This document shows positions 11,027 through 45,378 of a stretch of DNA of 64,000 nucleotides, piece after piece. A program made the position numbers and the translations under genes. Source of the stretch: an uncultured delta proteobacterium (lineage in GTDB: Bacteria > Desulfobacterota > Desulfobaccia > Desulfobaccales > 0-14-0-80-60-11); assembly GCA_963834795.1 (NCBI GenBank), contig CAWIDL010000032.1, forward strand, positions 238,278-302,277. The letters are read 5' to 3'. The notes below the pieces were generated by a model. It did not search any database. It worked only from the letters and a program-made list of their open reading frames with translations, and was not told the DNA's origin. Within the stretch, counting starts at the first letter, position 1; the number at the start of each line of letters is the position of its first letter.

Positions 11027-11120
11027 CTGTTTTCTGTTTACTGTTTTCTGTTTTCTGTGAAAGGCAAAATCAAAGTCAAAGGCCCTTTAGCAGAGGCAGA
11101 AAACAGAAAACTGAAAACAG
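11027..11120. repeat. Heptamer-word hairpin repeat, copy 1 (ctgtttt.. / ..aaaacag arms around a conserved core)
   Basis: Sequence is ctgttttctgtttactgttttctgttttctg-[tgaaaggcaaaatcaaagtcaaaggccctttagcagagg]-cagaaaacagaaaactgaaaacag. It is near-identical to 11625..11704. Confidence 0.85.
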
Positions 11121-11138
11121 GATCCAGAGACGCGCCTC

Positions 11139-11531
11139 TCATTTAACCCCCTCCCAGGGGAGTCCGGGGAATTTTCCCTCGTCGCGGCGGTCCACGGCCA
11201 GGCGGTAGTCCCGCTTGCCGATGCCCACCAGGCGGTCTTCCTTAAAAACCAGGGGGGTATAGCCTCCACGCACCGTGTTGGAATCCTCGAAATCCATGCT
11301 GTGAGTCAGGTAAAAATAGAAGGTATAGTGGCCGCCGCGGTAATCCCCATCTTCCCGGATCCCGGGCTGGCCCATGATTCCCGCCACTTCCGACTCGGTC
11401 ATGCCAAGCTTCACGGCATGGAAATGGACGAAATTGCCCCAGATTTCCTTATCGAATCTCTGATAGAGTATCGGCTCGCCGCAGCCAGGCGAAAACATTC
11501 CCAGAATCAGGAGGAGATAGAGCCAAGACAT
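11139..11531 (-). CDS. Small lipoprotein, SmpA/OmlA (BamE)-like
   Basis: Signal peptide ending ..GMFSPGC, followed by ..GMTESEVAGIMGQP.., the typical SmpA_OmlA core. Family assignment is tentative. Confidence 0.55.
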   Translation of the reverse strand: MSWLYLLLILGMFSPGCGEPILYQRFDKEIWGNFVHFHAVKLGMTESEVAGIMGQPGIREDGDYRGGHYTFYFYLTHSMDFEDSNTVRGGYTPLVFKEDRLVGIGKRDYRLAVDRRDEGKFPGLPWEGVK

Positions 11532-11624
11532 GTTTTATCCTTGTACCATGGTTGAATTGCACCCACTAAGATAAACATCACGGCAGATTCCGTCAATCCA
11601 AAGGGCCGCCAGCAGTCTAGAATA

Positions 11625-11704
11625 CTGTTTTCTATTTTCTGTAAAAGGCAAAATCAAAGTCAAAGGCCCTTTAGCAGAGGCAGAAAACAGGAAACAGAAA
11701 ACTG
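11625..11704. repeat. Heptamer-word hairpin repeat, copy 2
   Basis: Same orientation and core (aaaggcaaaatcaaagtcaaaggccctttagcagagg) as 11027..11120. The two copies bracket the lipoprotein gene as direct repeats. Confidence 0.85.
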
Positions 11705-11710
11705 CCTTCA

Positions 11711-12433
11711 CTAGCGCACCGCCAGGCGCAGAAAATTGCTCATAAAGCGGCGAAAATTCCGCCCCATCTCGCTTTCCTGGGATCGGGCCGTGGCCATGAC
11801 GGCCGCGACATCGGCCCCGGAGTCGGTTAGGGCCCAGGCCGCGTCAAATTGCAGCCACCTCTCAATGTCGGCAGGACCGACGTGGTTGTCAAACTGCAGT
11901 CCCACCACTCTGGGCGAGGCCGCCAGGCCCAGGGCTTCCACCGGCGCCGCCGCGGAGCGAGCCAGGATGTCAATCCCCCCGGGCAAGGGCGGCATTACTC
12001 CCTGCCCGTGCCATTTAAAGAGTTGGGGGCGGGCCGGCAACCCTTGAAAAGCCGGATGGGCCAGACCTGCCTGGGTCAGTTCGCCGCCAATAAAGCCCAC
12101 CGACTTTTTGGGCAAGGGGCCCACCCGACAGCCCAGGACGTGACCCAGGAGCTGGTGGCCCAGGCAAAATCCCAGGTAAGCCTTACCCAGGGCCAGCGCC
12201 TGCCTGATGGTCTCCTTCAGGGGCGCCAGGTAGGGAAACTGCTCTTCTTCATCCACATTGGGGGAGCCCCCCAGGACGATGAGCCCGTCAAAGCCGGCTA
12301 CTGCCGGCACCGGCTCATGCCAGGCCTCCAGTATCCGGTAAGTCATCCCGCCCGACTGCAAGGCCGCCAATAGGTGCTGCCCGGGGGCCTCCCAGTCCAG
12401 ATGCTGCACTATCAAAAAATTCTGCCCACCCAT
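11711..12433 (-). CDS. Class-I glutamine amidotransferase-like protein
   Basis: ..FDGLIVLGGSPNV.. and the nucleophile elbow ..YLGFCLGHQLLGHVLG.. (GxCxGxQ) are typical of GATase1. Confidence 0.75.
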   Translation of the reverse strand: MGGQNFLIVQHLDWEAPGQHLLAALQSGGMTYRILEAWHEPVPAVAGFDGLIVLGGSPNVDEEEQFPYLAPLKETIRQALALGKAYLGFCLGHQLLGHVLGCRVGPLPKKSVGFIGGELTQAGLAHPAFQGLPARPQLFKWHGQGVMPPLPGGIDILARSAAAPVEALGLAASPRVVGLQFDNHVGPADIERWLQFDAAWALTDSGADVAAVMATARSQESEMGRNFRRFMSNFLRLAVR

Positions 12434-12544
12434 GCCTCTCGTCCTTGAATCTAAAGATTATCCCGGAGGCCCGGACCCAGGGGCGCAAGAGTCAAGAGAT
12501 TATAGCCTTTTACCCGCCGGCGGAGTAGATTTTAATTAAGCAAT

Positions 12545-12782
12545 CGGTAGTGTCCGGCAACAAGATTGCACGAAGAAACTTACCCTATCTCGCAGTTAAA
12601 CTCTATCCCATTGTAATTTCAACAATATCCATATATTATACCGATGCCACCCAATCTCTCTCCCCTGCGAGGGAAGAGGGAAAAAGCCTGTAAATTCCGG
12701 GAAATGATTAGTATGGGGCATGCCCAAGTTCAAACAGCTCTCTACTGCCTGCCTCATGGCAAAAACCTTGCCGGACACTACT
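12545..12782. mobile_element. MITE copy 2
   Basis: cggtagtgtccggcaa ... ttgccggacactact termini, collinear with copies 1 and 3. This is the shortest copy (~238 bp). Confidence 0.75.
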
Positions 12783-12816
12783 TTTAAGGAATGAAAGAAT
12801 TATCCTGACCTCGTCA

Positions 12817-13590
12817 ATGAGCGAATTTTTGCTGGAGTCTGGCGGCCTGAGCTGCTACCAAAACCCTCTGCTGGCCGCCTTTCCGGAATTGACCCATGGT
12901 TTTTTCACCCGGCGGGGCGGGGTGAGCCTCGGGGCGTATGACAGTCTGAACCTCAGCTTCAACGTGGGGGATCGTCGGGAGGCGGTAGCCGAGAATCGCC
13001 GCCGGGTGCGGGAGGCGCTGGGGCTCAGGGCCCTGGCCAGCGCCAGTCAGAAACATGGACGCCGGGAGGTTGTAGTTGCCGGAGAGCCCCGGCCGAGGCC
13101 CGACGGCGAGTTGGAGGCCGCCGATATCCTGTTCACCCGCCAACCCGGGGTGGGGCTGCTGATCAAACAGGCGGACTGCCAGGCGGTGGTCATTTACGAC
13201 CCGGGCCGCCGGGTGGTGGCCAACATCCACTGCGGCTGGCGCGGCCAGGTGCAGAATGTCCTGGGAACCGCGGTGGCCCGGCTTAAGAAGCAGTTCGGCT
13301 GCCAGCCGGCGGACCTGTACGCTGCCATCAGCCCCAGCCTGGGGCCCTGCTGCGCCGAATTTCGCCACTTCCGCCAGGAATTTCCCCCTGAATTCTGGCC
13401 CTACCAAACGCGGCCCCACTACTTCGACCTCTGGCGCCTCAGCCGGGATCAGTTGCTGGCGGCCGGGCTTAAGGAGGCGCACCTGGCTCTTGCCGGCCTC
13501 TGCACCAGGTGCGGCGCCACGCAATTCTTCTCTTACCGCCGGGAGCGGATCACCGGCCGCCAAGGGACGGTCATCGCCCTCAAAATCTGA
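12817..13590 (+). CDS. pgeF: Peptidoglycan editing factor PgeF / YfiH (laccase-domain, DUF152) protein
   Basis: ..THGFFTRRGGVS..SLNLSFNVGD.., ..ADCQAVVIYDP.., ..HCGWRG.. and a C-terminal ..CT.C....FFSYRR pattern. Confidence 0.85.
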   Translation: MSEFLLESGGLSCYQNPLLAAFPELTHGFFTRRGGVSLGAYDSLNLSFNVGDRREAVAENRRRVREALGLRALASASQKHGRREVVVAGEPRPRPDGELEAADILFTRQPGVGLLIKQADCQAVVIYDPGRRVVANIHCGWRGQVQNVLGTAVARLKKQFGCQPADLYAAISPSLGPCCAEFRHFRQEFPPEFWPYQTRPHYFDLWRLSRDQLLAAGLKEAHLALAGLCTRCGATQFFSYRRERITGRQGTVIALKI

Positions 13591-13614
13591 TCCCCGCCCA
13601 CTTTAAAAAAACCT

Positions 13615-13761
13615 TTACCCCTGCCTGTCGCCCTTCTTGCCGAACTTTTCCTTTAGATCGTTGACCGTCTTCTTGGCGAACTCGACCGCCTGGTCCACCT
13701 GCCGCGGGTACGCGTAGCCCACGTAGACGCCGATGGCAAAGCCCAGAATCAGTAACAACAT
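13615..13761 (-). CDS. Small membrane protein (48 aa), below the ORF-track cutoff
   Basis: Manual translation gives MLLLILGFAIGVYVGYAYPRQVDQAVEFAKKTVNDLKEKFGKKGDRQG*, one TM helix plus an amphipathic tail. An SD-like aaagga lies 8 nt upstream. It fills an otherwise empty gap. Confidence 0.4.
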   Translation of the reverse strand: MLLLILGFAIGVYVGYAYPRQVDQAVEFAKKTVNDLKEKFGKKGDRQG

Positions 13762-13812
13762 GAAATCATCCTTTCCATTCGAGGTTAACCGGTGAAGACC
13801 GCACGGAGAGAA

Positions 13813-14475: not shown

Positions 14476-14592
14476 GGCTCACTGTGCCCCAGCCTGGTTT
14501 AGCTCATAAAAAAAGGCGGATGGCGGCCCTAAAAAAAAACGGGTGCGGCTCCCTTCCCGGCAAGTGGCCGCGATCCCTGCGATACCAAAAAC

Positions 14593-15000: not shown

Positions 15001-15138
15001 GGCTCCTCCTTTAGGCCTCGCAGGTATACTTCATCCTCTATCACAGAACCGGCGAGCGGGCAAGGACTTATACCTCAGGGTGGCGGCCAGTCGCCGCCAC
15101 GAATTGACCGCTTCCTGGCAATCACTGCCTGAAGGTTT

Positions 15139-15548
15139 CAGTAGTGTCCGGCAACAAAAATGCACGAAGAAACTTACACTATCCTGCAATTAAACTCTAT
15201 ACCATTGTAATTTCAACGATATCCACATATTATACTGAGCAACCAGATCCCCTCTCCTCTGCGAGGGGAGAGGGAAAAAAACTTGCAAATTTCAGGAAAT
15301 GATCAGCTAGTGTCATGTTTCAGAAATACCTTTAAAAATATCTGCATGTTCTTGTAGCCGCAGGCTTTAGCCTGCGCTCATTTTATTAAGGATTTTCGCA
15401 AGCTTAAGCTTGCGGCTACATTTAACGGCCTAAAGATGAAGGACATTTTTTATTAAAGGAAGATCTGAGACATGACACTAGTGGGCCTGCCTGATTCAAA
15501 CGGCTCCCTACTGCCTGCCTCAAGCAATAACCTTGCCGGACACTACTG
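15139..15548. mobile_element. MITE copy 3 (carries a nested insertion)
   Basis: Perfect termini cagtagtgtccggcaa ... ttgccggacactactg. Collinear with copies 1 and 2 except for the 165-bp insert at 15313..15477. Confidence 0.8.
15313..15477. mobile_element. Nested mini-element inside MITE copy 3
   Basis: Bounded by the 12-bp inverted repeat tcatgtttcaga / tctgagacatga and flanked by a direct duplication ctagtg (15307-15312 and 15478-15483). Copies 1 and 2 contain that motif only once (gattagCTAGTGggcatgcc). Confidence 0.6.
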
Positions 15549-15579
15549 ACCACGGCAAAGATTTCCGGAGACAATCTAG

Positions 15580-16326
15580 ATGAAAAACTCACTCATCAGC
15601 TTGGTGGCCATGATGGTGCTGCTTCTGTCCGCTTCCGGCGGCCAGGCGGCGGAACCGGATAAAATGGCCCGGGCCGACGCCCTGATGGAGAGCCCTGCTT
15701 TGGATTCCCAGCAGGCGCAGCAGGCCCTGGCCCTCTATGAAGAGCTGCTGCCAGGATCCCCGCTGTTGTTGGTCCGGCTGGCGCGCACCTGCTTCGTTTT
15801 GGGGGATATGGCCCCCGACGCCTCCCGGGCCGGCTATTATGAGAAAGGTCTGACCTACGCCGAAAAACTCGTGGCCCAACAGCCTGACGGGGTCGCCGGC
15901 CATTACTGGAAGGCCTTGAATCTGAGCGGTCTGGCCGACGTCAACCGCCTCCGCGGCTTTAAACTGCTGCCGCAAATCATGGACGAACTCGAACGGTCCC
16001 TGGCCCTGGATGAAACCTTTGACCAGGCCGGGGCCCACCGGGTGTTGGGGCGCATCTATTTTGAGGCGCCCGGCTGGCCCGTGTCGGTGGGAGACCGGAA
16101 AAAATCCTTGGAGCAGCTAACAGCCGCGGTCCGCCTGGCGCCGGACAACAGCACGAACCACCTCTATCTGGCGGAAACCTTGCTGGCCATGGGGGGGAAG
16201 GCCCAGGCCCGAGAGGAGCTGGAGAAGGTTTTGCAGCCCCGGCGCCACGCCATCAGCCCGCAGGACCTGGAGGAAGATCACCGGGAAGCCCGGGGCCTGC
16301 TAAAAAAGCTGGAGGAGCAGGAATGA
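15580..16326 (+). CDS. Secreted TPR protein, TatT-like (TRAP-T-associated TPR component family)
   Basis: Signal peptide MKNSLISLVAMMVLLLSASGGQAA, then ..GHYWKALNLSG.. and ..GRIYFEAPGWPVSVGDRKKS..; the overall layout resembles TatT-family proteins. Confidence 0.55.
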   Translation: MKNSLISLVAMMVLLLSASGGQAAEPDKMARADALMESPALDSQQAQQALALYEELLPGSPLLLVRLARTCFVLGDMAPDASRAGYYEKGLTYAEKLVAQQPDGVAGHYWKALNLSGLADVNRLRGFKLLPQIMDELERSLALDETFDQAGAHRVLGRIYFEAPGWPVSVGDRKKSLEQLTAAVRLAPDNSTNHLYLAETLLAMGGKAQAREELEKVLQPRRHAISPQDLEEDHREARGLLKKLEEQE

Positions 16327-16343
16327 GTTCTGAGTTTTGAGTT

Positions 16344-16390
16344 GTAGGGGCGACAGTGGCACAGGCTTCCAGCCTGTGATCTGGTCGCCC
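16344..16390 (+). repeat. Two-tier hairpin repeat (family A), copy 1
   Basis: Sequence gtaggggcgacagtggcacaggcttccagcctgtgatctggtcgccc. Outer stem is gggcgac/gtcgccc; inner perfect stem is cacaggct/agcctgtg. Confidence 0.85.
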
Positions 16391-16682
16391 GGTTTCGAGT
16401 TTCGAGTTCCTTTAACCAGACACCCAGGGCGTGCTAGGCACGCCGCCTGAGGTTCGGCGGCCACGAGCCGCCCTAGTAACTGGACAAGCTTTCCCTTATC
16501 CCTATAATAATTACATAATTACCTTACAACCTGGTGCTTTGATGATTATGTTAAAATATTATTTTGGGGGAGAATCCTATCCGCAAGAGAAGGCTCAGGC
16601 CGGACTGGGGGAGGCGTGCACGCATCATCCGGCCGATTTGCCTGCTACCCCAAAAAACCGAATTTGCGCTTAAGGGACGAGC

Positions 16683-20595: not shown

Positions 20596-20640
20596 GAAAA
20601 TGCCCTATCGCAAGAGATGTTGGGAAAGGGTTTTTTATCT

Positions 20641-22591: not shown

Positions 22592-22623
22592 TCCGCTGAA
22601 GATGTAGGGGCGACAGCTGACAG

Positions 22624-23706
22624 CTATCTCGCCAGCTCTTCCAGGGCTTCCAGATTGCGGCGCATCCCCAAGGCAATCAAGGTGTCCCCCGCCAGGATGG
22701 GAGTCTCGAGGGTTGGATTGAAGAGCATCTCGCCGTCGCCCCGCTTAATGGCCACCAGGATGAGGTCCAGCTTCTGGCGGAGGCCGGAGTCCTTGAGGGC
22801 CACCCCCACCAGGGACGAGCCAGCGCCGACTTTGATTTCCTCCATGCTCCACTCCAACCCTTCGGTCAGGGCCAGTTCCATAAAGGTGGTCACCGTGGGG
22901 CGCAGGATGGCGCCGGCCATCCTCCGGCCCCCCATTTCATAGGGTGATTCCACCCGGTCGGCCCCGGCCCGCAGCAGCTTCTGCTCCGCCCCCACCTCCT
23001 CGGCCCGGGCCACAATGTAGAGGGCAGGGTTGAGGCTGCGGGCTGACAGGACGATGTAGACATTGTCGGCATCCGAGGAGACTACCGCCACCAAACCCCG
23101 GGCCCGGTCAATGCCCGCCTCTAACAAGACTTCTTCCCGGGTGGCGTCACCGGAGACGACATAATAACCGCTCTCCTCCAGGCGGCTCAGGTTCTCGGGC
23201 TTATTTTCCACGATGACCAGGGGGGTGCCCCGATCATGCAGTTGGCGGGCGATAATCTCGCCGATGCGGCCAAAGCCGCAGATAATATAATGATTTTTCA
23301 GTTTTTGGATGTTCTTCACCAAGCTGCGTCTCCCCAAGACCTCTCTGATCTCCCCTTCCACCACCACCCGGGCCAGGGAAGTGATGATATAGGCCAGGAC
23401 CCCCATGCCGACGAGGATCAGCCCCATGTTATACAGCCGTCCGGTTTGGGAGAGGGGGTGAACCTCCCCATAGCCCACAGTGGACAGGGTGGTTACCGTC
23501 ATGTACAGGGCGTCGAAGAAATTCCAGCCTTCCAGCCAGACAAAGCCCAGACTCCCAAAAATGAGCAACGCCAGCAGGACGGCAGTCAAAGTTAGAATGC
23601 GCCGGAGGGTGGTCAACCCGGTCCGCTGGCTGTGAGTTACCGGAGTCTTGAGCTGGTACATAACATCTTTAGGCGAGGGGCTGGCCAACCCCGAATATCT
23701 TACCAC
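22624..23706 (-). CDS. Potassium channel with two RCK/TrkA domains
   Basis: The selectivity filter TLSTVGYGE sits between two TM helices, followed by the Rossmann motif IICGFGRIGEIIA and TrkA-C regions. The start is ambiguous; Met at 23661 is also possible. Confidence 0.85.
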   Translation of the reverse strand: MVRYSGLASPSPKDVMYQLKTPVTHSQRTGLTTLRRILTLTAVLLALLIFGSLGFVWLEGWNFFDALYMTVTTLSTVGYGEVHPLSQTGRLYNMGLILVGMGVLAYIITSLARVVVEGEIREVLGRRSLVKNIQKLKNHYIICGFGRIGEIIARQLHDRGTPLVIVENKPENLSRLEESGYYVVSGDATREEVLLEAGIDRARGLVAVVSSDADNVYIVLSARSLNPALYIVARAEEVGAEQKLLRAGADRVESPYEMGGRRMAGAILRPTVTTFMELALTEGLEWSMEEIKVGAGSSLVGVALKDSGLRQKLDLILVAIKRGDGEMLFNPTLETPILAGDTLIALGMRRNLEALEELAR

Positions 23707-24248
23707 AAAAAGGCGGGCCCTGGTCGGAAAGAATTCGCCAAATAGCTCTCAGCTTTCAGCCATCAGCTTTCAGCTTTTTGCTTTTTTGCTTTTTTGCTGA
23801 GCGAGGTTAGCGTTTGCTTAACTCATTCTCGTTCCCAAGCTCCCGCCTTGAAAGGTTGTGAAGAATTGGTGGCGCAGGCGTCCCTCGAAAAAAACCTGTG
23901 CGGACTGGGTGGCGGGCGAGACGCCCGCCCCACCGGTCTTCTCATAATTTATGGGTAGGCCAAAGGCCCATGAACGGCTGTTCCGAAAAGTTGCCAATTT
24001 TTCATCGTTGCGGGTGAGCTAAAGGCTCATGAATTACTGCTTGGGAACGCACTGCTACAGTTTCTTTGCCGGCTCTTTTGCCAAATTTTCCGGTTTTTTT
24101 TAATCCTTCAATTAGCTTTCGCCCTTGGTCTTTTGCCTTTAGCTGATACCTGATAACTGATAACTGCTAGCTTCTTAAACCCTCCTTTCTGCAAGTGACC
24201 GGTTAATTCTTTTGGCAGAGAGACCCCGATTGTGGTAATCAGTTGGCC

Positions 24249-26607: not shown

Positions 26608-27246
26608 ATGTTCTGCCCAGCCTGCGGCAAGGAGGCGCCGGAGTTGACCAATTTCTGCCAATACTGCGGCCAAACCCTTAATTGGGCCGCCGTGGAGCCG
26701 CAGGTCCAGGGGACCGCCGGAAGACACCCGGCCGCCGTGAAATATGCGGGCTTCTGGCTAAGATTTGTGGCATTTGTCATTGATTGCATCTTTATTTCCA
26801 TTGTAGTCCTGGGCGCCACAACCGTGGTGGCATCTATTTTGGGAGTGCATGCCGGGCTCCATGCAGGAAGGTATGGAGGTATAGCATTCGGGGGGGCCTT
26901 CGGAATAAGGCATTTTAGCGGCACTTTAGTCGCATGGCTCTACTGGGCCCTCATGGAGTCTTCCCCCAAACAAGCAACTCTGGGCAAGATGGCCCTGGGC
27001 CTCAAGGTTACCGACCTCCAGGGGGAACGCCTCTCCTTCGCCAGGGCCACCGGCAGATATTTCGGCAAAATTGTCTCTTCCCTAATTCTCTTTGTCGGCT
27101 TCATGATGGCCGGTTGGACCGAGAAGAAACAGGCCCTCCATGACATCATGGCCGGCACCCTAGTGGTTAAAAAACGGAATTTGCCAGAGAAGTTGGCAAT
27201 AGCTCAAGGTTTTCAACAGGATATGGAAGTCGGCCACCCCAAATGA
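26608..27246 (+). CDS. RDD-family membrane protein with N-terminal zinc ribbon
   Basis: CPACG..FCQYCG ribbon, then ..YAGFWLRFVAFVIDCIF.. and ..ALHDIMAGTLVV.. (RDD domain). Confidence 0.75.
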   Translation: MFCPACGKEAPELTNFCQYCGQTLNWAAVEPQVQGTAGRHPAAVKYAGFWLRFVAFVIDCIFISIVVLGATTVVASILGVHAGLHAGRYGGIAFGGAFGIRHFSGTLVAWLYWALMESSPKQATLGKMALGLKVTDLQGERLSFARATGRYFGKIVSSLILFVGFMMAGWTEKKQALHDIMAGTLVVKKRNLPEKLAIAQGFQQDMEVGHPK

Positions 27247-28208
27247 AACGCAGGGAATTCTTGTGGTGTCTGGCTCTGGGACTGGCGGGGGGCTGGGCCC
27301 TCAGCCGCCCTAATAAAGAACTCCGCCCAGCCGCGGCGACGGCCGGGGGCCCGGAGATGCGCCTGGCCTTTCTGGCCGATGCGCACCTGAAAGACGCTGA
27401 CCAGGGGCGCCCCGAGGCCCTGGCCCTGGCCCGGGCGGTGGCGGAGTTGCGAGCCCTCAAGCCCGGGCCCGATCTGGTCCTGTTCGCCGGAGACCTGGCC
27501 CACCGCGGCCACCCCGGGGCCCTGGCCCTGGGGAAGGAGATCCTCGCCGGCCTGCCGGGGCCTCTGCTAATGCTCATGGGCGAGGGCGACGGCCTGCCGG
27601 ACGGGGCCGCCCCCTGGCGCCGCCTCTTTGGGGAACCCCGGTTTTCCCAGGTCTTACGTAAAGCCGGAAACGGCAACCAGCAAACTGCCCTCCAGATTGT
27701 AGGCCTGCACACCGCCTGGTGTCCGGGCCCCGGGGGACCGTTCTTCCGGGTGGGGGAGCCCGGCCGCCACCGCCTGGCCCGGCAGCTTGCCGGGATGGAC
27801 CACGAAGCGCCCCTCATCCTCCTCTCCCACGCCCCCCTGGACCTCATCTATCGGCCCTGGCAACAGTGGACCGCGGACTGCCGCGAGGTGGCGGCCCTGC
27901 TGGCCGGCTTCCGCCAGGTCCTTTGCCTCCATGGCCATACCCATAATGCAGGGGCCAGGGGTCAGGGGCCAGGGGTCAGTGAAGTTTATGATAGGGACGG
28001 GATCTTTTTGACGGAAAACGGAAAACGGAAAACGGAAAACCGTCTTTTACACCTTTCTCTACCCGCCACTGCCTGGCCCGGCCCCCAGGCATTGCAGGGG
28101 ACCCCGGCCAGCTCCGTCCCCGGGCTGGGCCCCGCCGGCTGCGGCTGGGTGCTGCTTGAGGCAGATGGTGGAGTCTTCCGGTTCCAACCGCGCATCTGGC
28201 GATCATAG
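27243..28208 (+). CDS. Tat-signal metallophosphoesterase (calcineurin-like) with an in-frame repeat insertion
   Basis: Tat-like N-terminus MKRREFLWCLALGLAGG. Motifs ..FLADAHL.., ..FAGDLAHRG.. and ..LHGHTHN.. are present. Nucleotides 27951-28044 are an intergenic-type repeat read in frame. Confidence 0.7.
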   Translation: MKRREFLWCLALGLAGGWALSRPNKELRPAAATAGGPEMRLAFLADAHLKDADQGRPEALALARAVAELRALKPGPDLVLFAGDLAHRGHPGALALGKEILAGLPGPLLMLMGEGDGLPDGAAPWRRLFGEPRFSQVLRKAGNGNQQTALQIVGLHTAWCPGPGGPFFRVGEPGRHRLARQLAGMDHEAPLILLSHAPLDLIYRPWQQWTADCREVAALLAGFRQVLCLHGHTHNAGARGQGPGVSEVYDRDGIFLTENGKRKTENRLLHLSLPATAWPGPQALQGTPASSVPGLGPAGCGWVLLEADGGVFRFQPRIWRS

Positions 28209-28307
28209 CGCTAATTTTCTCGCTGCATCAATATATGTCGATCCTGGCGAGTAATTAGCTATCTTACGGAATCTCTTATAATTTTTTTAGATGAAAAGTA
28301 TGCTAAC

Positions 28308-29111
28308 ATGTCCCCGATGGGAGGATTCGCCCCAAGAATAGAAACTCCAGGGGATTTTCCAAGGGCTTGGCAATCCCCAAAAAAATTTAGCCTCGATAGC
28401 CAGGGCTGCCGCATAATCTCGGATCATCTTATGTTTATTAAAAAAACAATCGAGGACTTATACGAGAAGGCTTATAATCTTTTATTTATTAAAGAAGACT
28501 ACCAAAATGCCATTAAGGTTTTTAGAAAAATTATCCAGCAAAAACCGGATGAGTTTGAGGCCTTCTTCTGGCTCGGTCAAACCTATCTACAGGCCACAGG
28601 CGACTACCAGCAAGCTATAGAGAGTTTTAAGCAGGTAATCCGTCTTCAACCCAATAACGCTGAAGCTTATTTCTCTTTGGGGAGAGCATACGGCCTACTA
28701 GGACATCACCAGGACGAATTAGAGAATTATCTCCAAGCAATTCATATCAAACCAGATTATGCCGAGGCATACGGTAACCTTGGATCAACTTACATAGACC
28801 TCGGTCGTTTTCCTGAAGCGTTGGAGGCTTACAAGAAAGCATCTTCCCTTAAACCTAACGATCCCGAAATATACTATAATATTGGTACTGTGTTTTGTCA
28901 GCTAAACGAAAATGAGATGGCGGTAAAGGCTCTGGAACTGTGTATTCAGCTAAAGCCTGACCATGCGAGGGCCTATTATAATTTGGGTTTAACATATGGA
29001 AAACTTGGTCGATATGATGACGCTTTGGAAGCTTTAAGACAGGTCATTCGCCTTGAACCAGATTCTATAGAGGCACAGTATGCCTTATTAAATATTATTG
29101 GCAATATTTAA
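28308..29111 (+). CDS. TPR-repeat protein (AT-rich islet)
   Basis: Six to seven canonical TPR units (..AEAYFSLGRAYGLLGHHQDELENYLQAIHIKPDYAEAYGNLG..). The true start may be the Met at 28431. Confidence 0.7.
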   Translation: MSPMGGFAPRIETPGDFPRAWQSPKKFSLDSQGCRIISDHLMFIKKTIEDLYEKAYNLLFIKEDYQNAIKVFRKIIQQKPDEFEAFFWLGQTYLQATGDYQQAIESFKQVIRLQPNNAEAYFSLGRAYGLLGHHQDELENYLQAIHIKPDYAEAYGNLGSTYIDLGRFPEALEAYKKASSLKPNDPEIYYNIGTVFCQLNENEMAVKALELCIQLKPDHARAYYNLGLTYGKLGRYDDALEALRQVIRLEPDSIEAQYALLNIIGNI

Positions 29112-29238
29112 TCTGACTTTTCTGGTAAATTGAACAACTATATATCATGTGAGAATATCAGATGACCAACAGAATATAAATTATGTAACAAATATGATGG
29201 CATTTAATTTCGGGGGTTATGTTGCAAGAGGTTGAGCT

Positions 29239-29679
29239 ATGTATAAAGTGCTGGCTGCAATGCATATGGAAATGAATGAAGGGTGGGCTTGGGTTACCAA
29301 TGAGGGTTTTCCTCCTCGGTCGGTCATTAAGATCAAAAACAAAAACAATAGAAAAGTAGTGTATTGCGAGTATCTCGAAATAGATCCTAACTTTCGGGAG
29401 GTGTACAATAATACGTCAAAAAGGGAGAAGATTGACCTTGGAGAAAAAACCATAGTGTTAAACGGCTGGTATAGAAAAAGACTCGGGGGAATAAGCACCA
29501 AATCAAACTATGATCTTAAAATTACTCAAGCAAATGGCTGGTGGGGTAGATTTCGGGTATGTACAGATCATCCACAGGTAGTGGTCCGCTTTTCTATAAA
29601 GTTGGCAGTTATCAGTGTCGGTCTTGCAGCATTGAGTGTTTGCCTTGCAGTACTTAGCATTTGGATGGTATCCAAATGA
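29239..29679 (+). CDS. Hypothetical membrane-anchored protein (146 aa)
   Basis: AT-rich ORF with an SD (gagg) and a C-terminal TM helix LAVISVGLAALSVCLAVLSIWMV. The N-terminal ~100 aa are faintly beta-barrel-like (..VIKIKNK..IVLNGWYRKRLG..). No family assigned. Confidence 0.45.
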   Translation: MYKVLAAMHMEMNEGWAWVTNEGFPPRSVIKIKNKNNRKVVYCEYLEIDPNFREVYNNTSKREKIDLGEKTIVLNGWYRKRLGGISTKSNYDLKITQANGWWGRFRVCTDHPQVVVRFSIKLAVISVGLAALSVCLAVLSIWMVSK

Positions 29680-29762
29680 AACGCGGATTTTTTAAGGTCA
29701 TGATGCTTCGGTCAGAATGAAAATTCTGCCTGTTTCGGGGTTTTCCCATACCTGCTAAAGCC

Positions 29763-31400: not shown

Positions 31401-31476
31401 TTGGCGATACTGGTGGGATTTTAATCCCGTCAGGTTGCCAAACGGGCGATGGATACGAACCTCCGGGTTTTGAGTT

Positions 31477-31523
31477 GTAGGGGCGACAGTGGCACAGGCT
31501 TCCAGCCTGTGATGGGGTCGCCC
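31477..31523 (+). repeat. Two-tier hairpin repeat (family A), copy 2
   Basis: gtaggggcgacagtggcacaggcttccagcctgtgatggggtcgccc, flanked by gttttgagtt / agtttcgagtttcgag heptamer words as in copy 1. Confidence 0.85.
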
Positions 31524-31789
31524 AGTTTCGAGTTTCGAGAAAAAACCACCTCGGGCCGGGAACAGAACTAATTTTCCTGGAGGCAGCTATTTTTTTTATT
31601 TTAACCTTTTTCCTGGAAAAGATGAACTCCTCCCCTTCATCTCACTTGCGAACTTAAAACTCGAAACCCAAAACTCAAAACTTATTAACGGGAGCATGAA
31701 AGGGGTTCCAGCTTTATCCCCTCTCCCCCGATGGGGGAGAGGGTTAGGGTGAGGGGGAATTTAATCTCTTTTCCGCTCCCATTAATAAC

Positions 31790-32386: not shown

Positions 32387-32764
32387 CTCACCCTCGCTGA
32401 GGGGAAACCACCCCGAGAAGCTGAGTATCACCTTTATGGCGCCGGGCCAAGAAAAATTTTCTGAAAACTCGAAACTCAAAACTCGAAACTTGAAACTGAA
32501 AAGGCCTCCAGCCCCTGGCAGGCTGAGATCCCACTCAGTTAATGCATGCCGGTGAGCGCCATCCCCAGTCCCTTTTGGTAATTTGGGGGCGGCCAAGCCG
32601 GGGCCGCTTAACCTTTAACCTTGAACCTTGAACTAATGTCTTAGCGCAGGGCTTCCCCCGCTGACCTTGCAAACCTGGGCATACATGGATATAATTTAGT
32701 TAACTATGGATATCTGCCTTTAACTCTAATCTTTAAAATTTATTTGATTCCGACCCTCAAAGAT

Positions 32765-34525: not shown

Positions 34526-35713
34526 ATGGTAGGAGTCTCCAAACTCTATTGCGGCGCGGTGGAAGCCGGCGACCTCCTGCGTTATCAGGGCCGCCAGGCC
34601 CAAGAGCTGCCGTCCCACCTTTTGCAGTTCTCGGCGGATAAAAAGCCGGTGGTGGTCTGGAATGTCACCAGGCGCTGCAACCTCAAATGCCTCCACTGTT
34701 ACGCCCAGGCCACCGCCGGCCCGGCCCAGGATGAGCTGAGCCATCAAGCAGCCCTGGATTTGCTCCGGGACCTGAAGGACTTCGGGGCGCCGGTGGTCCT
34801 GTTTTCCGGGGGTGAGCCCCTGTTGCGGCCGGACCTCTTTGAGCTGGTGGACCGGGCCGTGGCCCACGGCATGCGGGCGGTGATCTCCACCAACGGCACC
34901 CTGATCAGCCGGGACCTGGCCTGGCGCCTGAAAGACCTGGGCCTCTCCTACGTAGGCATCAGCCTGGACGGCGCCGCGGAGGTCCATGACCGCTTTCGGG
35001 GCGAGTCCGGCTCCTTTGCCGCGGCCATGGCCGGGGTGCGCCACTGCCGGGAGATGGGCCTCAAGGTGGGGCTGCGCTTCACCCTCAGCCGCCTCAATTA
35101 CCGGGAAGTGCCGGCCATTTTCGACCTGGTGGAGGAATACCAGCTTCCCCGCATCTGCTTCTATCACCTGGTCTATGCCGGCCGCGGCACCAAGCTGGTG
35201 GCCGAGGCCTTGAGCCACCCCCAGACCCGGGAGCTGTTGGACCTGATCTGCGCCCGCACCCGCCGGATCTTCGACGCCGGCCGCGCCGCCGAGGTGCTCA
35301 CGGTGGACAACCATGCCGACGGCCCTTATATCTACCTGAAGCTGCTTAAGGAAGACCCGCGCAGGGCCGCGGAGGTCCTGGAATTGCTCAAAATGAACGA
35401 AGGGAACAATTCCGGTCGGGGGATCGGCTGCGTCAGTTGGGACGGGGAGGTGCACGCCGACCAGTTCTGGCGCCACTATAGCTTCGGCAACGTGCAGCGC
35501 CGCCCCTTCGGCGAGATCTGGACCGACCTGACGAATCCTCTCATGGCCCGGCTCAAGGACAAAAAGCGCTATGTGGGCGGGCGCTGCGCCCGCTGCCGCT
35601 GGTTGGAGGTCTGCGCCGGCAACTTCCGGGTCCGGGCCGAGGCCCTGAGCGGCGACCTCTGGGACCCTGATCCCGCCTGTTACCTGACGGATGAGGAAAT
35701 CGGGATGAATTGA
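34526..35713 (+). CDS. Radical SAM/SPASM protein, NirJ/AhbC/AhbD family (alternative haem biosynthesis-like)
   Basis: ..VVWNVTRRCNLKCLHCY.. (CxxxCxxC). The C-terminal Cys-rich region ..GIGCVSWDG..GGRCARCRWLEVCAGNFR.. is typical of SPASM domains in NirJ/Ahb enzymes. The precise member cannot be decided by eye. Confidence 0.7.
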   Translation: MVGVSKLYCGAVEAGDLLRYQGRQAQELPSHLLQFSADKKPVVVWNVTRRCNLKCLHCYAQATAGPAQDELSHQAALDLLRDLKDFGAPVVLFSGGEPLLRPDLFELVDRAVAHGMRAVISTNGTLISRDLAWRLKDLGLSYVGISLDGAAEVHDRFRGESGSFAAAMAGVRHCREMGLKVGLRFTLSRLNYREVPAIFDLVEEYQLPRICFYHLVYAGRGTKLVAEALSHPQTRELLDLICARTRRIFDAGRAAEVLTVDNHADGPYIYLKLLKEDPRRAAEVLELLKMNEGNNSGRGIGCVSWDGEVHADQFWRHYSFGNVQRRPFGEIWTDLTNPLMARLKDKKRYVGGRCARCRWLEVCAGNFRVRAEALSGDLWDPDPACYLTDEEIGMN

Positions 35714-35750
35714 ATTTTTTTAGGGGCAGCCAATCCTCAAAAAATAATCA

Positions 35751-35805
35751 GGGGCGGCAGTGGCACAGGCTTCCAGCCTGTGATTGGCTCGCCCCTGGTT
35801 TTCAG
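35751..35805 (+). repeat. Two-tier hairpin repeat (family A), copy 3
   Basis: ggggcggcagtggcacaggcttccagcctgtgattggctcgcccc. The track ORF 35710..35982 is merely its translation (..WHRLPACD..). Confidence 0.8.
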
Positions 35806-38200: not shown

Positions 38201-38538
38201 GCTGAGCTCCTTTCCGGCCGCCACCTCAAACGAAAAAAACGAAAAAGGCGGCCACCGTCTTTTTCATTAAAGATAGTGACGCCCGGAGGCCTGAGCAAGG
38301 CGGCGCGCAAAATTTCCGGCGCCTTGGGGGAAGGCGCGGGGGATAAATAAGTTTTCGGTTTTCGGTTTGCGGTTAAGAAAACCTCTCATAAGTAGCTTAT
38401 TTTACTGGCCTTTTACCACTGGCCCACGCCAGTCCGCCGCCGGGCGCGCCTGATTCGCCCACCCCGCCGGCCGCCTGGACCCAGCCGCCTTTTCGTTGCC
38501 TGGCCGGTGCTGATGGGGTATATTTCAAACTTACAGGT

Positions 38539-40362: not shown

Positions 40363-40363
40363 C

Positions 40364-40472
40364 TAATAGCTGACAGCTATCAGCTTTTGGGTTTTGTGTT
40401 TTTGGGTTTTGTTTTTTGGTTATTGGTTTTTGCTTTAGCTCACTGCTGACCGCTGATAGCTGTCAGCTATTA
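40364..40472. repeat. 21-bp perfect inverted repeat flanking a T/G-rich heptamer tract
   Basis: taatagctgacagctatcagc (40364-40384) and its exact reverse complement gctgatagctgtcagctatta (40452-40472) are separated by ttttgggttttgtgtttttgggttttg... The element starts 2 nt after the cysS stop. Confidence 0.85.
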
Positions 40473-40492
40473 AACTTCAAGGAGGTTTTCAT

Positions 40493-40777: not shown

Positions 40778-41088
40778 TGTTTTTTTGGGGGGGGGCCAGG
40801 GGCCGACGGCCCCTGCCCTCCCCCCAAGCCCCCCTCCCAACCCCCAGAATTTAGCCGGGGAAGGCGGGCTGCGCCCGACTTCCCCGGCTTAAAAATAGGG
40901 GCGACCCAGCAGGTCGCCCTTACTCTTATGAGGATTGGGGGTGGGGGTTTGGGGGAGTTTTTTGTAAGTGTAAGGGCCCTCGGCCCACTTACAATCCCTC
41001 CCCCAACTTTTTTAACCTTTTGGGGTGGGTGGCGCCAAGCCACCCACCCCAAAAAAATGTTATATTTAATTTTGCCGATATTAATAAT

Positions 41089-43086: not shown

Positions 43087-43231
43087 GTTACGGGGTGCGG
43101 GGTTAAGATTTTAATTTTTTAAGTGAACTTCTTCTGAAGGAATGGGAGGGGGCCAATTAAACCACTACCTGTTAAAGCAGGTAGATTTTCCAACGACTGA
43201 AAATCTTACTCGGGTAATTCTGGCTCAAAAC

Positions 43232-44383
43232 TCACCTCTCCTCCTCCGCCCTTTTCTTGGGCCGCTTGCCATCGGGTTTAGCCTGCAATTTGAGGAATTC
43301 CTCCAGTAGCCGCTTCTGTTGGGAGCTGAGCCGGGTGGGGGTCTCCAGGGCCACTTCCACCACCAGGTCGCCCCTGGATTTGCCCCTGAGGCCCGGAAGC
43401 CCTTCCCTCGGGATGCGGAAGGTAGCCCCGGGCTGGGTGCCGGCTGGCACTTGCAGGAGCTTCTTGGAATTCAAGGTGGGAATAGTGACCGTGGCGCCCA
43501 GGGCCGCTTCCACAAAAGAGAGGTGCGCCTGGTAACGGAGATCTCGTTCCTTCCGGGAGAAGATGGGATGCGGGGTGATCTGAACTTCCAGGTAAAGGTC
43601 ACCGGCAGGGCCGCCTCTGACGCCCGCTTCCCCTTCCCCCCGGAGGCGCAGGCGGGTGCCGCTGTCCACCCCCGGCGGAATGCGCACCTGGAGCTGCTTC
43701 TTTTCCTTCACCGTGCCGCCGCCCCCGCAGTTGACGCAGGGGGAGGTGATGAGGGTGCCAGCCCCGAGACAATCCGGACAATTGTTGAAGATCTTCAGAA
43801 ATCCTCGGGGCTGGCTAACCTGGCCCCGGCCCCCACAGCGCGGGCAGCTCTGACGCTGGACGCCGGGCTCCAAGCCGCTGCCGCCGCAGCGCCGGCAACT
43901 GACTCGTCGTTCCACCTCCAGGCTGGTATCCAGGCCTCGGACCACTTCTTCCAGGGTCAGGACCACCCGCTGGCGCAAATCCGCCCCGGGTTGGGCCCGT
44001 TCGGCCTGGGCCGGCCGTTTCCCGAAGCTGAAGAATTCCTCGAATATGTCCCCAAAGGAGCCGAAGGTATCCTCAAAACCGCTGAAGCCGCCGACATCCA
44101 TACCGGCCACGCCCGCATGGCCATACAGGTCGTAAAGCTCCCGCTTCTCGGTATCCGACAGCACCTGGTAAGCTTCGGAAATCAGCTTGAATTGCTCTTC
44201 CGCCTGCTTGTCCCCGGGATTCTTGTCGGGATGATGTTTGAGAGCCAACTGCCGGTAACTGCCTTTGATTTCCTCCACTGAGGCATCCCGGGAGACCCCC
44301 AAGATCTCATAATATTCTGTCATTCCGGCCGAACCACTCCCAGCCTCATCCACTGGATGATTTTTCGCCCTAATGGTCATCAT
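43232..44383 (-). CDS. dnaJ: Molecular chaperone DnaJ
   Basis: [35 protein letters not shown], a G/F region, four CxxCxGxG repeats and the C-terminal domains. Start chosen at MMTIR (SD aaggaag). The track start at 44437 (MNFEL..) lies in the gttcaaa repeat. Confidence 0.9.
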
Positions 44384-44424
44384 CTTCACTTCCTTTGTCA
44401 AGGACGGCTGCGGACATGGAGATA

Positions 44425-44504
44425 GTTCAAAGTTCAAAGTTCAAAGTTTCACCTCGAAGTAAGTTTGCCCTTAACCTTGAACCTTGAACTTTGAACTTTG
44501 AACT
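44425..44504. repeat. Heptamer-word long hairpin (gttcaaa x3 / tttgaac x3) between yggU and dnaJ
   Basis: The left arm gttcaaagttcaaagttcaaag is complementary to the right arm ..ctttgaactttgaactttgaac. The right arm encodes the last ~11 codons of the DUF167 ORF (..[12 protein letters not shown]). Confidence 0.8.
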
Positions 44505-44797
44505 TTTTTTGGAAGGGCTTCCAGGCGGGCCTCCAGGTCCGGGGAGAGATCGTGGATTTCCACCAGCTTGCTGCGGCTGCGGGCCCCCAGGAGACGGAAG
44601 GCGTCCTGGGGAAGCTTCAGGGCCCGAGCCAGGAAGGCCAGGAGTTCCCGGTTGGCCGCCCCCTTTTCCGGGACAGCCGTCAGCCGGACCTTGAGACGGT
44701 CGCCATGCAAGCCCACCACCTCGGTGCGCCGGCCCCCCGGAGCCACCGTTAGCCGCAGCAGGTAGCCCTGGCAGGTGGGCGAAAACCAGGTGGACAT
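44471..44797 (-). CDS. yggU: DUF167 (YggU-family) protein
   Basis: ..LLRLTVAPGGRRTEVVGLHGDRLKVRLTAVPEKGAANRELLAFLA.. is the DUF167 core. Start trimmed to MSTWF so it no longer overlaps yggT. Confidence 0.75.
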   Translation of the reverse strand: MSTWFSPTCQGYLLRLTVAPGGRRTEVVGLHGDRLKVRLTAVPEKGAANRELLAFLARALKLPQDAFRLLGARSRSKLVEIHDLSPDLEARLEALPKKVQSSKFKVQG

Positions 44798-44811
44798 CCC
44801 GAGGCTAGTCC

Positions 44812-45111
44812 TCAGCAGATCCGGTAGGCCAGGCCCAGGAGGCTGGCCCACAGGAAACTTCTCAAAAATACGATGGCCAGCAGCACCAGGAGGGGGCTCA
44901 GATCCAGGCCGCTATAGACCAGGGGCAGCCGCTGCCGCAACCAGGCCAGCACCGGTTCGGTGACCTTATAGAGAAACCGGACGATGGGGTTGTAGGGATC
45001 GGGGTTCACCCAGGAAATCAGGGCCCGGGCGATGATAATATACATATAGATGGCGAGCCCCAGGTCAAGGATCTTGGCCAGGGCCACCAGCAGATTGCTT
45101 AGGACAAACAT
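44812..45111 (-). CDS. yggT: YggT-family membrane protein
   Basis: ..IIIARALISWVNPDPYNPIVRFLYKVTEPVL.. is the YGGT repeat signature. Confidence 0.85.
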   Translation of the reverse strand: MFVLSNLLVALAKILDLGLAIYMYIIIARALISWVNPDPYNPIVRFLYKVTEPVLAWLRQRLPLVYSGLDLSPLLVLLAIVFLRSFLWASLLGLAYRIC

Positions 45112-45248
45112 TCCCGCTTCTCCATTTCTTAAGAAATTTAGTCTATTATGGCCGGGGCGCTAAAATTGTCAAGGCGGAAAGGTAATGATAGCAATCAGCT
45201 CCTGTAGGGTGCGCACTGCGCACCCTACATGGCTGATTGCTGAAAGCA

Positions 45249-45292
45249 GGGCGACCCGATCACAGGCTGGAAGCCTGTGCCACTGTCGCCCC
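45249..45292 (-). repeat. Two-tier hairpin repeat (family A), copy 4 (inverted orientation)
   Basis: gggcgacccgatcacaggctggaagcctgtgccactgtcgcccc is the reverse complement of the family consensus. It is adjacent to another nested hairpin at 45191-45240. Confidence 0.85.
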
Positions 45293-45378
45293 TCCTGCTG
45301 ACGGCTGACAGCTAAAAAATACCAGGTTGCGCCGGCCCGAGGCATTCCTTAAAATAGAAAGATTAGCCAGCGTCTCAG

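Follow-up and report, generated by a model that had tools for sequence, protein, structure and literature searches.

Tandem arrays of seven-nucleotide units have been described in several bacterial lineages, and heptanucleotides are the most abundant class of long simple sequence repeats (LSSRs) in most of the repeat-rich prokaryotic genomes surveyed, for which slippage was proposed (Mrazek 2007, as summarised in PMC4679880 and PMC4692102). Among them are the heptanucleotides of Calothrix and Nostoc known as short tandemly repeated repetitive (STRR) sequences (Mazel 1990, as cited in PMC4692102). Here we describe arrays of this kind in a 64-kb window, the whole stretch of DNA that was analysed, on contig CAWIDL010000032.1 of an uncultured member of the Desulfobaccales (Thermodesulfobacteriota). 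With a probability of roughly 0.6, we regard them as heptanucleotide simple sequence repeats (SSRs), that is, microsatellites of the STRR/LSSR type which would have arisen by slippage, lie partly as inverted pairs, were partly copied in the manner of repetitive extragenic palindromes (REPs) or of MITEs (miniature inverted-repeat transposable elements), and are tolerated where they persist.

The window arrays resemble the cyanobacterial STRR in their tandem 7-nt units, in the presence of several words per genome, in a mostly intergenic location and in having no assigned function, but they belong to another phylum, use other words, are short (2-7 units) and are often paired as hairpin arms. The canonical STRR words, whose hosts are heterocystous cyanobacteria, are CCCCAGT, TTGGTCA and CAACAGT, whereas the words of this Desulfobaccales host are AAAACNN, TCAGNNN and GTTCAAR, which places the arrays outside STRR sensu stricto. 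In Xanthomonas, the word GGGAATC forms about 185 arrays per genome, mostly of 4 units and some of them as inverted pairs (Rehm et al. 2015, PMC4692102), and these arrays occupy the same gene pairs in two species with varying lengths. The Xanthomonas repeats and the GGGGA(C/T)T SSRs of Nostoc share with the window a strong intergenic over-representation of heptamers only, a usual size of about 4 units, great variation in length and sequence at shared gene pairs of related species, and pairs capable of forming stem-loops or cruciforms; likewise, one array described below (array A, 27949-27979) is, as are their G-rich words, a G-quadruplex motif. Each of those genomes has one dominant G-rich word, in contrast to the three word families found here, mostly based on A/T tracts, and the interior inversion and nesting with REPs seen here are not mentioned in the passages of PMC4692102 that were compared.

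Geobacter metallireducens, a former deltaproteobacterium, has sites at which MTYCTGA is repeated five times in tandem, paired with one another on opposite strands (Aklujkar et al. 2009, PMC2700814), read by the authors as sites for IHF/HU or a global regulator, together with 49 GGACCGG x4 elements between and inside genes (PMC2700814). Multicopy tandem heptamers in opposite-strand pairs at variable distance are also found in the window (11026/11097, 40364/40452 and 44424/44480), but their units (TCAGCTN, CAGAAAA and GTTCAAR) do not fit either Geobacter consensus, TCAGNNN sharing only the CTGA core, and comparative evidence for slippage and inversion, available here, is not given for Geobacter (PMC2700814). 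The TAACTGA direct repeats of Beggiatoaceae, Cyanobacteria and Bacteroidetes lie a few nt upstream of start codons and are almost never inverted (MacGregor 2015, PMC4679880); the identical word occurs at 24143-24166, where it is also short and intergenic, but at a single locus and about 77 nt from the nearest open reading frame (ORF). The remark in the original prediction that no description in this kind of genome was known is thus contradicted by the literature, since heptanucleotide repeats, inverted pairs included, had already been published for Geobacter metallireducens, Xanthomonas, Nostoc and Beggiatoaceae; for Desulfobaccales, a literature search found no published report of them. This order now joins the scattered lineages with spacers dominated by heptanucleotide repeats, and it does so with comparative evidence of a sort rarely shown: whole-unit change between near-identical strains, homogenisation, a flipped interior, and repeat words in a protein loop with frameshift alleles.

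Enrichment and placement of the heptanucleotide arrays

With a GC content of about 58-60%, the window is an ordinary stretch of chromosome carrying housekeeping genes (rlmN, cysS, uvrB, dnaJ, hflX, rpsB-tsf-pyrH-frr and others). An exact copy of its CysS protein is found on the metagenome contigs ENA ERZ25039519 contig_23882 and Logan ERR12076131, and the nearest named relatives by CysS are metagenome-assembled genomes (MAGs) called 'Desulfobaccales bacterium' by their sources. Loci of relatives used for comparison carry labels from L081 to L097; in relatives with a CysS identity of 78-98%, the gene order PC4-cysS-GYD-uvrB-dnaJ-DUF167-yggT-MFS is kept. As controls, 80 unrelated bacterial UvrB loci (1.4 Mb; UvrB identity at most 69% among the matches listed) were used. 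Arrays were called with Tandem Repeats Finder (TRF), overlaps being removed, and the chance level was set by second-order Markov shuffles.

Of 64 TRF rows in the window, 23 had period 7, corresponding to 18 non-redundant period-7 arrays (2.1-5.4 copies, 80-100% matches) plus 3 of period 14. The 18 arrays compare with 1.2 in shuffles, an excess of about 15-fold (Poisson P~1e-15), and an independent match-run scan gave 7 period-7 runs against 0 expected. Period 7 was the modal period, no other period exceeding 9 arrays, so that the possibility of period-7 repeats being no more frequent than other periods is not what was found. Arrays occurred at 0.28/kb in the window; the figure was 0.167/kb for eight relatives, a sign that the clade shares the feature, and 0.037/kb for the unrelated loci, in which the coding-compatible periods 9 and 12 dominate. 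Head-to-tail tandem copies (3 or more units, high identity) and an over-representation of period 7 against both chance and other periods, as in heptanucleotide LSSRs and STRR, are therefore present, in line with the enriched, STRR-like repeats of the original prediction, each of whose listed heptamer runs was recovered at its place or within a few bases of it by TRF and by reading of the sequence. At the thresholds used for gathering Rfam families, the sole match in the window was a tRNA, and no known RNA family covers any array.

Chance, or an artefact of long-read metagenome assembly, has practically no probability as the source of this pattern. Between the window and the near-identical locus L081, the only differences are two substitutions and three single-base indels, of which indels at least two fall in homopolymer runs, as is typical of long-read assemblies; however, none of these differences falls in a heptamer array, which argues against assembly noise, the same arrays are present in SPAdes, JGI and NCBI MAG assemblies of relatives that were assembled independently, and the excess over shuffles is itself large. 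The arrays can nevertheless affect assemblies and annotation: they inflate ORF calls and break short-read assemblies (the contig of L094 ends inside one), and should be expected by annotators of such MAGs.

Fifteen of the 18 arrays are intergenic although the non-coding share of the window is at most 28% (P=2e-6). The idea that the arrays lie in spacers is therefore largely borne out, except for those at 27949-27979 and 28011-28040, which are in frame inside the gene at 27243-28208. Convergent, divergent and co-directional spacers are all represented, in addition to this one coding loop, and a stop codon lies 0-10 nt away at 5 of 7 hairpin or composite loci. Arrays are also present in divergent promoter spacers (45190-45315, 32465-32633 and 23744-24166). 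By inspection, no fixed strand orientation of the AAAACNN arrays relative to transcription was found.

Hairpins, composites and shared words

The paired arrays and the composites with REPs are the following.

11026-11128: hairpin F3a; left arm (TCTGTTT)x4.7 at 11026-11058, right arm (CAGAAAA)x3.4 at 11097-11120 (extending to 11128), loop a period-6 A-rich stretch; it ends 10 nt past the stop (11139) of the DUF3192 gene on the minus strand
11623-11702: hairpin F3b; second copy of F3a with a shorter left arm; it ends 8 nt past the stop (11711) of the GATase gene, also on the minus strand
40364-40472: hairpin F1; AGCTGAC/AGCTATC-unit arms at 40364-40384 and 40452-40472, loop a (TTTTGGG/TTTTGTG)x7 array at 40385-40436; begins 2 nt past the cysS stop and reaches to about 6 nt from the ribosome-binding site of the GYD gene
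44424-44506: hairpin F2; left arm (AGTTCAA)x3.6, right arm (CCTTGAA/CTTTGAA)x5, the latter overlapping the 3' end and stop of the DUF167 gene (minus strand); the hairpin is located upstream of the region of the dnaJ promoter
45190-45315: composite palindrome between the divergent yggT and MFS genes; heptamer arms of the CAGC type, GCAATCAGC / GCTGATTGC, GCTGACGGCTGACAGC enclosing two nested REP palindromes, GTAGGGTGCGCACTGCGCACCCTAC and a GGGGCGAC...GTCGCCC core
16324-16410, plus strand: composite; (TGAGTTY)x2.9 and (GTTTCGA)x2.4 directly flank the GTAG-REP core 16344-16390; the gene at 15580-16326 has the array's first TGA as its stop codon
31467-31540, plus strand: second copy of this composite; GTTTTGAGTT, REP core, then (GTTTCGA)x2.3
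5529-5586, minus strand: short REP; GTAGGGGCGACCCGCTGGGTCGCCC flanked by GTTTTGA/GTTTCGA-type units
22604-22633: GTAGGGGCGAC then AGCTGAC AGCTATC units, in a 32-nt spacer between two minus-strand genes

The three long stems that had been quoted for these hairpins are real: that of F1 has 21 bp at 100% complementarity (RNA free energy, dG, -43.2; z -5.75), that of F3a (11027-11050/11097-11120) 24 nt at 92% (dG -36.5, z -4.05) and that of F2 (44424-44448/44480-44504) 25 nt at 96% (dG -38.1, z -6.8), all three folding much better than shuffled sequences. RNA z scores were -2.87 for F3b and -8.25 for the composite palindrome. Runs were said to be often matched downstream by their reverse complement, and this stands for the four long hairpins (F3a, F3b, F1 and F2), whereas most arrays are solitary. 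The arrays outside the long hairpins and composites are these, those starting at 6432, 24143, 31651, 32465, 32610 and 38351 being without an inverted partner.

6432-6450: (TTTCGAG)x2.7, solitary, in a convergent spacer
23744-23800: (AGCTTTC/AGCCATC)x4.9 then (TTTTTGC)x3, the arm-plus-loop vocabulary of F1; RNA folding gave no hairpin (z -0.87)
24143-24166: (CTGATAA)x3.4, that is, TAACTGA direct repeats; solitary, upstream of the ORF at 24243
31651-31682: (AACTCAA/AACTCGA)x4.6, solitary
32465-32501: (AAACTCG)x5.4, in the FTCD_C/ClpX-like divergent spacer (its status as a spacer comes from the L081 gene call)
32608-32633: (AACCTTG)x3.4, word of the F2 arm
38351-38374: (GTTTTCG)x3.4, reverse complement of ACCGAAA, in the SOD/PC4 spacer

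Four recurring element types can be recognised, and the spacers are nested mosaics of them. In type F1 (40364-40472, 23744-23800 and 45190-45315), arms built of near-palindromic CAGCTGN units surround a (TTTTGGG)n or (AAAACCC)n loop; type F2 (44424-44506 and 32608-32633) has GTTCAAR arms, the array at 32607-32634 and the F2 arm at 44470-44497 using the same word; type F3 (11026-11128 and 11623-11702) has CTGTTTT/CAGAAAA arms around the period-6 A-rich loop; and in type F4, GAGTTTY/GTTTCGA arrays directly flank a GTAG-type REP core, GTAGGGGCGACAGTGGCACAGGCTTCCAGCCTGTGAT..GTCGCCC. Some of these are copies of each other: 11026-11128 and 11623-11702 are 95% identical over 80 nt, 16334-16406 and 31467-31539 are 96% identical over 73 nt, and F1, in the cysS-GYD spacer, resembles an element at a non-orthologous site, the yggT/MFS spacer of L083 (78% over 98 nt).

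The words themselves are shared as well. When rotation and either strand are allowed, three families, AAAACNN (with one-mismatch variants), TCAGNNN and GTTCAAN (GTTCAAR), account for 34 of the 43 period-7 arrays (79%) in the window and nine relatives, against 5 of 52 in the control loci (Fisher P=2e-12), and (AAAACNN)x3 matches 10 window loci compared with 0.2 in shuffles and 0.7 per 64 kb in controls. Since the AAAACNN family groups them, CTGTTTT, CGGAAAA, GTTTTCG, GTTTTGA and TTTTGGG are variants of one theme. The view that each locus has a different word is accordingly overstated, in the light of the duplicated elements and of the clustering into three families. That the loci are no simple copy-paste of one REP element holds, as no single REP family accounts for them, but their sequences are not unshared, for most arrays fall in three word families and whole hairpins recur at non-orthologous sites.

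The GTAG-type REP cores are present in the window in six copies with an identical 26-nt core, two short forms, and one further perfect REP.

16344-16390, 31477-31523, 35750-35794, 45249-45293 (minus strand), 51981-52021, 52720-52764: GTAG-REP copies
5545-5569, 40899-40919: GTAG-REP short forms
45203-45229: second perfect REP, GTAGGGTGCGCACTGCGCACCCTAC

Copies 16344 and 31477 and the shorter version at 5569 lie inside F4-type arrays, and copy 45249 lies between CAGC-type units. Like REPs, bacterial interspersed mosaic elements and the GTAG REPs associated with RAYT (Y1 transposase) genes, the heptamer hairpins are intergenic palindromes placed just after stop codons, numerous and nested, and genuine GTAG cores co-occur with them; unlike those elements, they are internally periodic and carry no GTAG, so that they fall outside the REP class. 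It is the nested cores (GTAGGGGCGAC..., 6 copies) that carry GTAG, and therefore the cores, and not the heptamer arms, look REP-like.

These features raise the question of whether the hairpins are non-autonomous MITE-like or REP-like mobile elements, with terminal inverted repeats that merely chance to consist of heptamers, generated and spread by a trans-acting transposase or RAYT, with slippage being secondary. Whole elements have been duplicated (F3a/F3b and 16334/31467) and an F1-like copy is found at a non-orthologous site in L083; GTAG-type cores are nested in arrays or flanked by them; in L083 and L088 the dnaJ hairpin has another MITE-like insert within its loop; and loci present in some relatives are absent from others. 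We nevertheless consider this origin unlikely. The inverted arms of a MITE are present and F3 occurs in two copies, but no target-site duplication is visible at F3a/F3b in this small sample, no RAYT or other transposase gene was found in the 64-kb window except for an IS1595 zinc-ribbon fragment, arm unit numbers differ between copies, many arrays have no inverted partner, and in-frame arrays persist in one gene across deep divergence.

Another possibility is that the hairpins are selected terminators or 3'-end protectors, their heptamer texture being incidental. In its favor, stop codons adjoin 5 of the 7 loci, stem stability is very high (dG -27 to -43 kcal/mol), and the F1 left arm with its T-rich loop (40368-40385) fits, in the window orientation, the pattern of a terminator. 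However, no U-tract follows the full stems, as an intrinsic terminator would have, terminator-like matches are not above shuffles (9 against 9.7, and 6 against 10.2), the composite at 45190-45315 lies in a divergent promoter spacer, F1 complementarity is poorly kept in the cysS spacer of L083, and the solitary arrays are left unexplained; we regard this explanation as very unlikely.

Unit number and inversion in orthologous spacers

Comparison of orthologous spacers for changes in copy number, as the original prediction had proposed, revealed differences of whole units. The (GTTTCGA) array at 31524 has 2.3 units in the window and 3.3 in L095 (+7 nt), and the (AACCTTG) array at 32610 has 3.4 and 5.6, respectively (+14 nt); in L093, whose CysS is 97% identical, the right arm of F1 is shorter by 7 nt and its loop by 15 nt; and the arms in the dnaJ spacer range from 3.6 to 7 units, with varying mixes of GTTCAAA and GTTCAAG (window, L083, L084 and L088). 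Together with the coding allele of L090 described below, L095 and L093 thus display unit-number polymorphism at orthologous loci, as is characteristic of LSSRs and STRR.

The interior of F1 provides evidence of a different nature. On the cysS strand it is T/G-rich in the window, L081, L082 and L093, an orientation apparently kept in a truncated variant in L095-L097, and A/C-rich in L094 (98%), L084 (92%), L083 (90%) and L088 (83%). Taken as its reverse complement, the L084 loop agrees with that of the window at 50 of 53 positions, no forward alignment being obtained, while both flanks are collinear; because of this, the comparison indicates at least one flip of the segment between the arms within a set of strains that have 97-98% CysS identity to the window. 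Such a flip is to be expected of a segment between perfect 21-bp inverted repeats. A metagenome scan anchored on the 3' end of cysS returned 3 loci, all with one further structural variant, too few for a flip frequency. In the yggT/MFS spacer, the outer CAGC arms are common to the window, L083 and L084, and the interiors are differing combinations of two REPs and a TTTTGGG array.

Based on these comparisons, we hypothesize that slipped-strand mispairing in a 7-nt register lengthens, shortens and homogenises the arrays, and that those lying as inverted pairs would form long hairpins, in which recombination or template switching between the arms may keep the complementarity and flip the segment between them. 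Whole hairpins, and arrays joined to GTAG-type REP cores, would be copied into new spacers like REP or MITE elements, and would be retained at sites where the cost is small, namely close behind stop codons (within a few bases), elsewhere in spacers, and in one protein's tolerant surface loop. As part of a transcript, the hairpins would be expected to act in a REP-like manner, as stable 3' stem-loops and not as classical terminators, whereas a unit gained or lost inside a gene would shift the reading frame. The generative process formerly suggested, slippage plus templated inversion, fits both the whole-unit indels and the inverted hairpin interior, with slippage itself being what we infer from them.

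Several observations weigh against this account. The vocabulary is restricted and shared across distant genomes, which random slippage seeds do not predict. The SOD/PC4 array at 38351 has 3.4 units in five relatives, with only within-unit substitutions, and the array at 28011-28040 (array B, below) holds about 4.3 units down to 55% protein identity, long-lived copy numbers that suggest constraint. The account does not predict the 7-nt unit length, the idea of a polymerase contact being a published speculation, and the shared word vocabulary bears in turn on why the units have 7 nt and why these particular words recur. Furthermore, neither a copying enzyme nor a target-site duplication was found in the data examined, and the clade sample covered only about 200 kb. 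Because the restricted, shared vocabulary and the long-lived copy numbers are left unexplained by slippage and copying, both a mobile-element origin and a role in protein binding continue to deserve attention.

According to the latter, the arrays would be multimeric sites for a sequence-specific DNA- or RNA-binding protein (a global regulator of the IHF/HU kind, or an RNA binder with a ring shape or several domains, such as S1, Csp, CsrA or HutP), the period corresponding to the spacing of subunits. The retention of a limited set of words across genomes, the excess of (AAAACNN)x3 loci given above and the stable copy number of some arrays would agree with this, and the same was proposed for the Geobacter paired sites (PMC2700814) and for the TAACTGA repeats (PMC4679880). 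Nevertheless, strand and distance to genes are inconsistent, the arrays being found in convergent, divergent and co-directional spacers and in a coding loop; unit number and sequence vary among close relatives; L086, L087 and L089 (78-83%) are without the cysS and dnaJ hairpins and arrays, the words GAGTTTC and CTGTTTT being present elsewhere in them; and no candidate protein was identified. We regard such a role as quite unlikely. The resemblance of GTTCAAR to the GTTRRRY core of integron attC sites was rejected on other grounds, namely that its C is not a purine and that there is no integrase or cassette structure.

Arrays inside a CpdA-like gene, and other repeats

The gene at 27243-28208 encodes a CpdA/Icc-like metallophosphoesterase with which homologues align over 100% of its length, and contains two arrays.

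27949-27979, plus strand: array A, (CAGGGGC CAGGGGT)x2.2, in frame, encoding AGARGQGPGVS
28011-28040, plus strand: array B, (ACGGAAA)x4.3, 100% matches, in frame, encoding TENGKRKTEN

The loop in which both sit is variable and separates the GHTH motif from a strongly conserved C-terminal block (LSLPATAWPGP...GCGW). Across homologues from Thermodesulfobacteriota it is hypervariable, with 28-94 residues, and in the window it comprises residues 235-270. A search of PDB sequences with the protein gave a match limited to the N-terminal part and nothing on the loop; an AlphaFold model built on a shallow alignment of 15 sequences, in which the conserved C-terminus also scored low, gave a predicted local distance difference test (pLDDT) value below 50 for residues 233-268, a result compatible with a floppy loop. 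Array A constitutes a canonical G-quadruplex motif on the coding strand (GGGG N3 x4). Pairing of arrays A and B as a hairpin was ruled out (RNA z -1.35).

The peptide of array B is found in most homologues, down to 55% identity, as TENRKPKTEN, which is exactly (ACCGAAA)x4.3, and in the L092 homologue (57% identical) the DNA is still 7-periodic (ACCGAAA ACCCAAA ACCGAAA ACAGAAA). In the lineage of the window, the third base is changed in all four units, from the ACCGAAA type to ACGGAAA, and TENRKPK has become TENGKRK; since all four units share the change, the comparison of sequences indicates concerted evolution at the DNA level and not selection on the protein. The intergenic array at 38351 carries the word ACCGAAA in reverse complement. 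In other homologues, loop peptides translate the other word families, such as VSGQWPVVS for (CAGTGGY)n, AVSYQLSAFS for (CAGCTNN)n and GVRGQGSGV for (CAGGGGY)n, and some loops have a duplicated module or C-rich REP-like segments (for example, the peptide PPLEKGDLGGF). In a second loop, degenerate in the window, (CAGAAAA)x4 of L091 encodes QKTENGKQKT.

Alleles that differ by one unit are frameshifted. Array A has 34 nt in the window and 27 nt in L090 (P0131, protein 89% identical), exactly 7 nt fewer, and the L090 ORF stops at a TGA just before array B while the whole C-terminal block stays open in another frame; L091 (P0194) has the same signature from an independent frameshift in a (GGTCAGT)3 array. 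P0181 and P0239 also end inside the loop, but both come from ENA assemblies and may reflect sequencing errors, so that two to four homologues are frameshifted inside the loop. An SSR whose unit length cannot be divided by 3, lying in an ORF and with whole-unit frameshift alleles, is one mark of a phase-variable contingency locus, and Haemophilus influenzae is known to have frameshifts at heptanucleotide SSRs within ORFs (PMC2651432). The likeness extends to the intact downstream frame of the one-unit alleles; in contrast to the Haemophilus influenzae loci, however, the host is a free-living anaerobe, the product is a housekeeping-type phosphoesterase and not a surface antigen, and the variation seen here is one between sequence alleles. 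The tolerance of intergenic-type repeat DNA in frame in protein surface loops is also reminiscent of the Rickettsia palindromic elements, which reportedly lie in frame in genes; those are palindromes of 100-150 nt, whereas the sequences here are SSR arrays.

Pushed to its limit, the evidence on F1 and on this gene might be read as contingency switching in a free-living anaerobe, in which the flip of F1 would move a hairpin-plus-U-tract terminator to the other strand, one-unit slippage would toggle the C-terminal block of the CpdA-like cyclic-nucleotide phosphodiesterase, and a dedicated sequence-specific factor would create or read AAAACNN/TCAGNNN arrays across Thermodesulfobacteriota. We believe this to be highly unlikely.

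A low-GC (45%) island at about 28210-29700 separates the CpdA-like gene from hflX, and contains a gene for a TPR-repeat protein (28308-29111) and a 146-residue ORF without a family match; as the two flanking genes are adjacent in L091, the island looks like an insertion. Upstream of dnaJ, at 44370-44410, the motif CCCCTTGTCAAG(A/G)A(C/T)GG (CTTGACA on the dnaJ strand) is kept at orthologous sites in all relatives, even in those without the hairpin, and is probably the dnaJ promoter or a heat-shock element. Near position 35361, a single-base deletion relative to L081 falls inside a radical-SAM/SPASM gene, at which the gene call of L081 is itself split, and the MFS gene at 45327-46619 appears split in the ORF map; both look like long-read assembly errors.

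Other repeats were noticed in the window. The palindromic family GTTCCCAAGCnnnnGCTTGGGAAC forms inverted pairs about 75-100 nt apart (20633-20665/20762-20794, 52554-52600/52676-52722, 5170-5262 and around 23830-23850). MITE-like elements 240-410 nt long, which end in inverted repeats of 15 bp, AGTAGTGTCCGGCAA (7 such termini, 0.04 being expected), and have an internal CCCTCTCC..GAGGGGAGAGGG hairpin, lie at 1339-1659, 12546-12782, 15140-15547 and 56379 to about 56480. A second MITE-like element, CCTCTG(T/C)(G/A)AAAG...GTCATTCTGAGGGAGTGAAGCGACCGAAGAAT...CAGAGG, is found at 5325-5412 and in L083 (15590-15690) and L088 (14955-15085); in relatives it is inserted in the loop of the heptamer hairpin of the dnaJ spacer, and similar termini are seen in the F3 loop at 11050-11100. 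G-run/C-run palindromes GGGGGGGGGCCAGGGGCC...CCCTCCCCCCAAGCCCCCCTCCCAACCCCC are located at 40785-40850, 40930-41020 and 51896-51975, and at 10790-10860 in L086, and fill the cysS-GYD spacer in relatives without the heptamer hairpin, including those of L087 and L089. At 46735-46794, in a low-GC region, a 21-nt palindromic unit TGACCTCTATAAGAGGTCACA is repeated 2.9 times over the start of a weak helix-turn-helix ORF (46685-47131), and looks like a set of operators or iterons. Finally, the minus-strand ORF at 57813-58253, with an IS1595-type transposase zinc-ribbon domain, adjoins a low-GC block (58-61 kb) containing genes for DUF485, an SSF symporter and a CN-hydrolase.

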